In this document: piece by piece, positions 36,201 to 36,717 of the stretch | How positions within the stretch are numbered: the stretch's first letter is position 1 | Layout: every line of letters begins with the position of its first letter | From: Escherichia coli | GTDB taxonomy: Bacteria > Pseudomonadota > Gammaproteobacteria > Enterobacterales > Enterobacteriaceae | Assembly: GCF_030013595.1 (NCBI RefSeq) | Contig: NZ_CP122768.1 | Reading direction: 5' to 3' (one strand) | Length of the DNA stretch: 64,000 nt | The notes under the pieces: model-generated | The model's database searches: none | Told to the model about the DNA's origin: nothing | The model's input: only the letters and a program-made list of their open reading frames with translations | Program-made: the position numbers and the translations under genes

Positions 36201-36717
36201 GAGTTCCCCGCGCCAGCGGGGATAAACCGCCGCTCGCGCTCGGACTGAAACCAGGCCTTGCGAGTTCCCCGCGCCAGCGGGGATAAACCGGTCGCCAGAA
36301 CATCACACACGGCGGCGCGCTGGAGTTCCCCGCGCCAGCGGGGATAAACCGGTGCACACGTTGTATTTGTGCTGCCTATGCCAGAGTTCCCCGCGCCAGC
36401 GGGGATAAACCGGGCTTTACGCCCAAAAAGGATTGAATGCAGATGAGTTCCCCGCGCCAGCGGGGATAAACCGGGCTTTACGCCCAAAAAGGATTGAATG
36501 CAGATGAGTTCCCCGCGCCAGCGGGGATAAACCGTGCAGGCGGGGAAAAAACGCCGTTTTGTGGCTGAGTTCCCCGCGCCAGCGGGGATAAACCGGCATT
36601 GCTGTCTCAAATAATTAATCCGGGGAAGAGTTCCCCGCGCCAGCGGGGATAAACCGCGTTTAGCTCCGCAATGCTGGATATCACTGATGAGTTCCCCGCG
36701 TCAGCGGGGATAAACCA
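36201..36717 (+). CRISPR. Type I-E CRISPR array (CRISPR2.1-like, queE-ygcE locus): 9 repeats of 29 bp, 8 spacers of 32 bp
   Basis: Repeat GAGTTCCCCGCGCCAGCGGGGATAAACCG at 36201, 36262, 36323, 36384, 36445, 36506, 36567, 36628; terminal degenerate repeat at 36689 (C13T, G29A); perfect 61-bp periodicity. Confidence 0.95.

Follow-up and report, generated by a model that had tools for sequence, protein, structure and literature searches.

The 64-kb stretch of Escherichia coli DNA analyzed here (hereafter the window) carries the genes relA-mazG-pyrG-eno-ygcG-queE, a CRISPR array, ygcE and, further along, cysJIH-hok-iap-cysDNC, which is the gene order of K-12 read on the other strand. Because this order matches that of K-12, the array locus corresponds to CRISPR-II (CRISPR2.2/2.3) in the E. 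coli nomenclature, as that is laid out in the text of PMC3903273. The array is located on the plus strand at positions 36201 to 36717. Its leader-side flank is queE (ygcF, 35191-35862, plus strand), placed from the annotation of a near-identical genome, and its trailer-side flank is ygcE (37295-38773, minus strand), which sits at a 122-nt offset relative to the near-identical genome HCP5S3_I2.

The array consists of nine copies of the 29-nt repeat GAGTTCCCCGCGCCAGCGGGGATAAACCG, set at an exact 61-nt spacing and enclosing eight spacers. Eight of the nine repeats are perfect; the leader-distal one (36689-36717, plus strand), GAGTTCCCCGCGTCAGCGGGGATAAACCA, has two mismatches, and the same terminal repeat is found in relatives. 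Shuffled versions of the window gave no repeat match. All eight spacers are 32 nt long and the fourth and fifth are identical, which leaves seven unique spacers in the order W1-W2-W3-W4-W4-W6-W7-W8. The doubled W4 is a tandem duplication of one repeat-spacer unit (36384-36505, plus strand); W4 is single in HCP5S3_I2. The AT-rich leader (35863-36200, plus strand) extends from the queE stop codon to the first repeat, and the leader-side sequence upstream of the array (about 340-400 nt) has a GC content of 28-36%. The leader is 100% identical to the leaders of the cas-positive strain K_EC180 and of the cas-less HCP5S3_I2, and it aligns over its full length with the CRISPR-II leader of K-12, with slightly less than 10% of the positions differing. 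An earlier note, made from the sequence alone, had described a type I-E array of nine repeats and eight spacers with an AT-rich leader on the queE side and a degenerate distal repeat, and our analysis bears this out in every detail.

As RNA, the repeat is predicted to fold into a 7-bp stem with a 4-nt loop (-15.1 kcal/mol, z = -3.6), and this modeled hairpin would fit the stem-loop that Cas6e recognizes. The repeat sequence is also present in K-12 arrays. The array of the window belongs to the I-E CRISPR-II array family and is not part of a complete CRISPR-Cas system; a complete I-E system consists of cas3, five Cascade genes, cas1, and cas2, usually between cysH and iap, and this set is absent from the 64 kb. 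A variant at repeat position 2 is swapped between the two I-E loci of different strains. The CRISPR-II repeats of the window and of K_EC180 have GAGTT and the CRISPR-I repeats of K_EC180 (L008:10029-10423) have GTGTT, while K-12 (L003:3702-4464 and 30014-30408) shows the reverse.

A solitary hybrid degenerate repeat (37221-37249, plus strand) lies ~500 nt past the array and is a remnant of the second mini-array of the locus. In relatives, this mini-array consists of two degenerate repeats and one spacer, whereas the window has one hybrid repeat and is 61 nt shorter, a difference that points to a collapse of the mini-array via recombination between its repeats. Between positions 35800 and 37400, no Rfam family matched at the gathering thresholds. 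Consensus scans for promoters and terminators performed no better than on shuffled sequence (five promoter-like sites, 4.0 expected). A 143-codon ORF on the minus strand (36179-36610) was considered and rejected as a gene, as it is an artefact of repeated sequence running through the array.

Several features of the neighboring genes were observed along the way. The gap between relA and mazG is just 95 nt (29828-29922) and mazEF, the toxin-antitoxin pair that lies between these genes in K-12, is absent; it is also missing in the annotation of relatives. The ygcG gene is split into two ORFs (34025-34942), and NCBI annotates it as a pseudogene with an internal stop in near-identical genomes. The small gene beside it, at the position of yqcG, is frameshifted according to the NCBI annotation of the same kind of genomes. 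The sdaC gene (11719-13008) is intact in the window and its copy in HCP5S3_I2 is interrupted by ISVsa5, an IS10-like element (L001:10382-12938). An anchor containing ISVsa5 had 16 further matches on the HCP5S3_I2 chromosome, which are probably IS copies.

The cysH-iap interval and the search for cas genes

The usual I-E cas locus of E. coli is bordered by cysH and iap, and in K-12 this interval contains CRISPR-I and the cas operon. Both borders are present in the window, cysH at 52351-53085 (plus strand) and iap at 54978-56015 (minus strand), and the content of the interval is a hok-family toxin gene, an IS186-type element, and ~100 nt of intergenic sequence. The earlier claim that the interval is devoid of cas genes is therefore correct, with hok and the IS186-type element found there instead. 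The hok gene (53350-53502, plus strand, 50 codons) adjoins cysH and is retained. It was detected by the HokA/Hok models with E = 9e-16, under the curated cut-offs, and its DNA is 100% identical to the gene at the same position in HCP5S3_I2, which the NCBI annotation names Hok/Gef.

The insertion (53525-54860, minus strand) is bounded by a 12-bp target duplication, GGGGTAAAACCC, at 53513-53524 and 54861-54872, and has the terminal inverted ends ATAAGCGCTAACTTAAGGGTTG. Its transposase ORF (53532-54812) scored 132.7 bits against the NCBIfam IS4 model NF033592, for which the cut-off is 115. By its transposase, inverted repeats, and target duplication, the insertion is a member of the IS186/IS4 family. 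The site that it occupies between hok and iap (53513-54872 with the duplicated target) is GGGG(N)CCCC-like. An IS421/IS186-family element is also present in the cysH-iap interval of several unrelated cas-less genomes, which suggests that the interval is a hot spot for IS insertion. HCP5S3_I2 does not have this IS186 copy, and its junction is the junction of the window after removal of the IS. The junction at which the cas operon and CRISPR-I are missing lies at 54919-54962. At this point, the cas-positive relative K_EC180 has 9.2 kb (L008:1245-10489) that encode cas3, casA, casB, cas7, cas5, cas6, cas1, and cas2 and include a CRISPR-I array of seven repeats.

The window was searched by tblastn with eight I-E proteins of K-12, eight divergent I-E proteins of K_EC180, and six I-F proteins of LF82. 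The K_EC180 proteins represent a second I-E variant, in which Cas3 and four alignable Cascade subunits are 21-35% identical to those of K-12 and Cas1 and Cas2 are about 85% identical. No Cas homologue was found in the 64 kb, the best hit (E = 0.002, 24% over 83 aa) being spurious, so that the earlier observation of a window without any Cas ORF was confirmed with three protein sets. The NCBI (PGAP) annotation of the same stretch in HCP5S3_I2 lists only housekeeping genes and no cas gene or pseudogene.

The earlier note had also proposed a search of the complete genome for cas genes, which was run on the two closest complete genomes, HCP5S3_I2 and LCP30S3_I5, and on the plasmids of a genome collection. 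Both genomes have the same cas-less cysH-hok-iap junction as the window. A chimeric query, composed of a single-copy relA/rlmD anchor and eight cas probes (K-12-type cas3 and casC; K_EC180-type cas3, cas7, and cas1; LF82 cas1f, cas3f, and csy3), was searched in 5426 complete E. coli genomes. The top ranks went to HCP5S3_I2 and LCP30S3_I5, whose chromosomes were each matched in one place, the anchor, with no match to the cas probes elsewhere at megablast sensitivity. As a positive control, most of the other top-ranked genomes were matched in three places. The cas probes likewise found no match, I-E or I-F, on the plasmids of the 5426-genome collection. By these probes, HCP5S3_I2 and LCP30S3_I5 are without cas genes of I-E and of I-F, the two CRISPR-Cas types that E. 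coli is known to have. With I-E and I-F probes, the orphan status of the array is supported in the window itself and on the chromosomes of its two closest complete relatives. The view of the earlier note that the array is genetically stranded stands for these sequences; beyond the window it is carried by proxy genomes, by I-E and I-F probes, and by a search of megablast sensitivity.

Close relatives and spacer content

Positions 26000-36200 of the window are 100.0% identical to HCP5S3_I2 and LCP30S3_I5, which are faecal isolates from pigs in the UK. Over 60.1 kb, with the array and insertion sequences left out, the window and HCP5S3_I2 differ at 20 positions (0.033%). HCP5S3_I2 is a strain other than that of the window, as it has ISVsa5 in sdaC, a shorter array, and no IS186 copy. 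An array identical to that of the window was not present in any of the 5426 complete E. coli genomes; the best match was the array of the cas-less HCP5S3_I2 (W3-W4-W6-W7-W8), which is without W1, W2, and the W4 duplicate.

By megablast, only 30 of the 5426 complete genomes have an exact spacer in common with the window, and nearly all of these are pig isolates (ETEC, O139:H1). Among the genomes that share spacers are K_EC180, ETEC4068, and the chicken isolate 135, and in all three, which are those inspected, cas3-casA follows directly after the same hok gene. K_EC180 has a full I-E operon and CRISPR-I with every ORF open. Strain 135, the more distant one, is cas-positive as well.

The spacer order in the cas-positive K_EC180 is X1-W1-W2-X2-W3-W8, so that four of the seven unique spacers of the cas-less window (W1, W2, W3, and W8) are common to both arrays. 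The window has no private spacer, each of its spacers being found in at least one other genome. Since every window spacer occurs elsewhere, the differences between the arrays can be explained by the loss of units and, in the window, a single tandem duplication. The sole possible recent acquisition would be X1, the leader-end spacer of K_EC180. Turnover of whole units by recombination between identical repeats, with no new spacers, is the behavior expected of a frozen array. At the trailer end, W8 (36657-36688) is widely shared: roughly 300 diverse E. coli genomes carry it in their arrays with a single mismatch, a distribution that fits W8 as the oldest spacer in an old, vertically inherited trailer end.

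A comparison of the unique spacers with phage and plasmid sequences, also proposed in the earlier note, was productive for W1. This spacer matches VT1-Sakai at 28 of 32 positions, within the small-terminase (DUF1441) gene of a lambdoid/Stx prophage, and other E. coli prophages at up to 30 of 32 aligned positions. The W1 protospacer is immediately preceded by AAG, the I-E acquisition motif. The prophage match together with the canonical AAG indicates that W1 was acquired by genuine I-E machinery. This target agrees with the finding that E. coli spacers are directed mainly at prophages (PMC10910852). An origin from a mobile element with the AAG motif was found for W1 only, and the other six unique spacers had no significant match in phage, plasmid, or E. 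coli collections. In a search for an "anti-cas spacer", no spacer matched either I-E cas variant, the I-F cas genes, or the rest of the window.

Divergence from the cas-positive sisters

In the clonal segments shared by the window and K_EC180 (30.0-36.2 kb and 40-52 kb, 18.2 kb in all), there are eight differences (0.044%). Going by these counts, the split between cas-positive and cas-less strains would thus be about as recent as that between the window and the cas-less HCP5S3_I2. A divergence of 0.033-0.044% corresponds to 0.08-0.1 expected substitutions over the 232 perfect-repeat nucleotides, and the probability of none is about 0.9; divergence on the scale of the species (1-2%) would lead to 2-5 substitutions in the same 232 nt. 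The earlier note had considered perfectly conserved repeats to be unexpected for long-decaying DNA. With cas-positive sisters at 0.044%, this argument fails because the long decay that it assumed did not happen. The perfect repeats are no puzzle, since too little time has passed for point mutations.

Outside the clonal segments, the comparison with K_EC180 is a mosaic, with 1.0-2.6% divergence at 16-30 kb, 37-40 kb, and 52.0-59.0 kb. The last of these tracts begins at the end of cysI, reaches cysN, spans the cas locus, and is 1.4-2.6% divergent from K_EC180. The variant bases of the window in the 5' part of cysH are also found in 2012C-4221, which belongs to another lineage and is cas-less. 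The other two tracts (16291-30000 and 37300-40000), which are 1-2% divergent within otherwise near-identical sequence, were probably imported by recombination that had nothing to do with the cas locus.

The cas-less cysH-hok-iap arrangement is widespread. A 1.15-kb junction query found it contiguous in 1106 of the 5426 genomes, and a 3.65-kb query that tolerates an IS found it contiguous in 1467, with identities of about 94% to 99.0%. The exact donor of the cas-less allele of the window was not found in the 5426 genomes, and the nearest allele outside the clade is 99.0% identical.

Discussion

We regard it as highly probable that the array is a relic of recent cas loss, that is, the CRISPR-II array of a pig-associated E. 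coli lineage in which one sub-lineage lost the cas operon and CRISPR-I. The array would have been built by the type I-E system of the recent ancestor of the lineage, and the sub-lineage of the window would then have lost the entire cas3-to-cas2 operon along with the CRISPR-I array. The likeliest route of loss would be homologous recombination, in which a ~7-kb segment from cysI to cysN was exchanged for the widespread cas-less cysH-hok-iap allele. The IS186 copy would have inserted into the cas-less interval afterwards, in the strain of the window only. The array would now be inert. With no Cas6e or Cascade, its transcript would be neither processed nor used; with no Cas3, nothing would be degraded; and with no Cas1-Cas2, no spacer would be added. 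What change still occurs would come from recombination between identical repeats, by which whole units are deleted or duplicated.

The anatomy of the array, the lack of cas genes in the window, the spacer-sharing cas-positive sisters, the differences by whole units, and the mosaic of SNPs are direct observations. From these, we infer the direction of the event, loss here as opposed to regain in the sisters, as well as its recombinational route and the lack of function. The direction could be the opposite, with the sub-lineage of the window being ancestrally cas-less, its array having been frozen for longer, and K_EC180 and its relatives having regained cas-E and CRISPR-I by recombination. Such a history is unlikely in our estimate, though it has several observations on its side. 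The cas-less allele is old and widespread (1106-1467 of the 5426 genomes at 94-99% identity), the SNP mosaic indicates recombination across 52-59 kb in one or the other lineage without telling which, and PMC3903273 documents that cas-E is exchanged as a module at this locus. The extra leader-proximal X1 of K_EC180 is also what would be expected if that lineage alone had been active. However, the common array must have arisen in a cas-positive ancestor in any case, and beyond the two relatives of the window, three of three spacer-sharing genomes inspected are cas-positive, including the distant chicken strain 135. Even under regain, the practical conclusion of an inert relic array would be unchanged.

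Two further readings would give the array a present role, and we hold both to be very improbable. In one, the array is not stranded, as compatible cas genes act on it in trans from a plasmid, a prophage, or elsewhere on the chromosome. The fully intact leader and repeats would make the array usable to such genes, but the eight cas probes matched neither the two closest complete chromosomes nor any plasmid of the 5426 genomes. In addition, the text of PMC3903273 describes the I-E system of E. coli only at iap-cysH and the I-F system only at clpA-infA, and the iap-cysH interval of the window is without cas genes. In the other, which we find just as hard to credit, selection keeps the array, either for a regulatory, cas-independent transcript or for a spacer memory that becomes useful after cas genes are re-imported. 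Touchon and Rocha argue that some residual arrays of cas-less E. coli are under selection (PMC2886076), and cas modules are exchanged by recombination in E. coli, as the text of PMC3903273 sets out. Against selection, no spacer matches the cas genes of I-F or of either I-E variant, or the window itself; the neutral expectation already accounts for the intact repeats; and units have been lost and duplicated haphazardly among close relatives.

Under the preferred reading of recent cas loss, the array would place that loss later than the divergence from the cas-positive sisters. More generally, an intact-looking CRISPR array in E. coli is no indication of current immunity. Such arrays decay first by the gain and loss of whole units and not by point mutation. 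The spacer order of the array in the window is a useful lineage marker for the pig-associated clade.

The arrangement has clear precedents. In Almendros et al. 2014, the iap-cysH region comes in nine arrangements, among them a deletion of cas-E in which hok/sok is kept, and an involvement of IS186 is described as well (PMC3903273). The same paper states that CRISPR-II leaders are conserved in strains without cas-E. The window resembles the cas-E deletion in the position of its array, its 29-nt repeat and 32-nt spacers, its homologous leader, and the retention of a hok-family gene, and in both cas-E and CRISPR2.1 are gone from between cysH and iap. It differs from that arrangement, as described there, by the added IS186-type insertion, and other genomes also have an IS421/IS186-family element. 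On the basis of its text description, we assign the window to arrangement B of PMC3903273. A 2025 survey of urinary isolates distinguishes groups "lacking cas genes but containing repeat regions", to which the whole of CC131 belongs (PMC12736100).

Touchon and Rocha 2010 note that the number of repeats tracks the recency of cas loss, and that in BL21, BL21(DE3), and REL606 a recent deletion has removed the cas genes while many repeats are still present (PMC2886076). These E. coli B strains are like the window in that a multi-spacer I-E array with intact repeats is left without cas genes after a recent loss (PMC2886076). The B-strain deletion has IS elements on its flanks, whereas the window has a clean cas-less junction common to many lineages, with IS186 apparently a later arrival. 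The arrays of BL21-AI take up new spacers once Cas1-Cas2 are supplied, and arrays of this kind thus stay competent. The closest counterpart with a complete system is K_EC180, which is like the window in having W1, W2, W3, and W8, an identical leader and repeat, and the same hok gene beside cysH, and unlike it in having cas3, casA, casB, cas7, cas5, cas6, cas1, cas2, and a 7-repeat CRISPR-I. A cas-less arrangement of this type is already known from about a quarter of E. coli strains, and the array of the window, although real, is an ordinary example of it.
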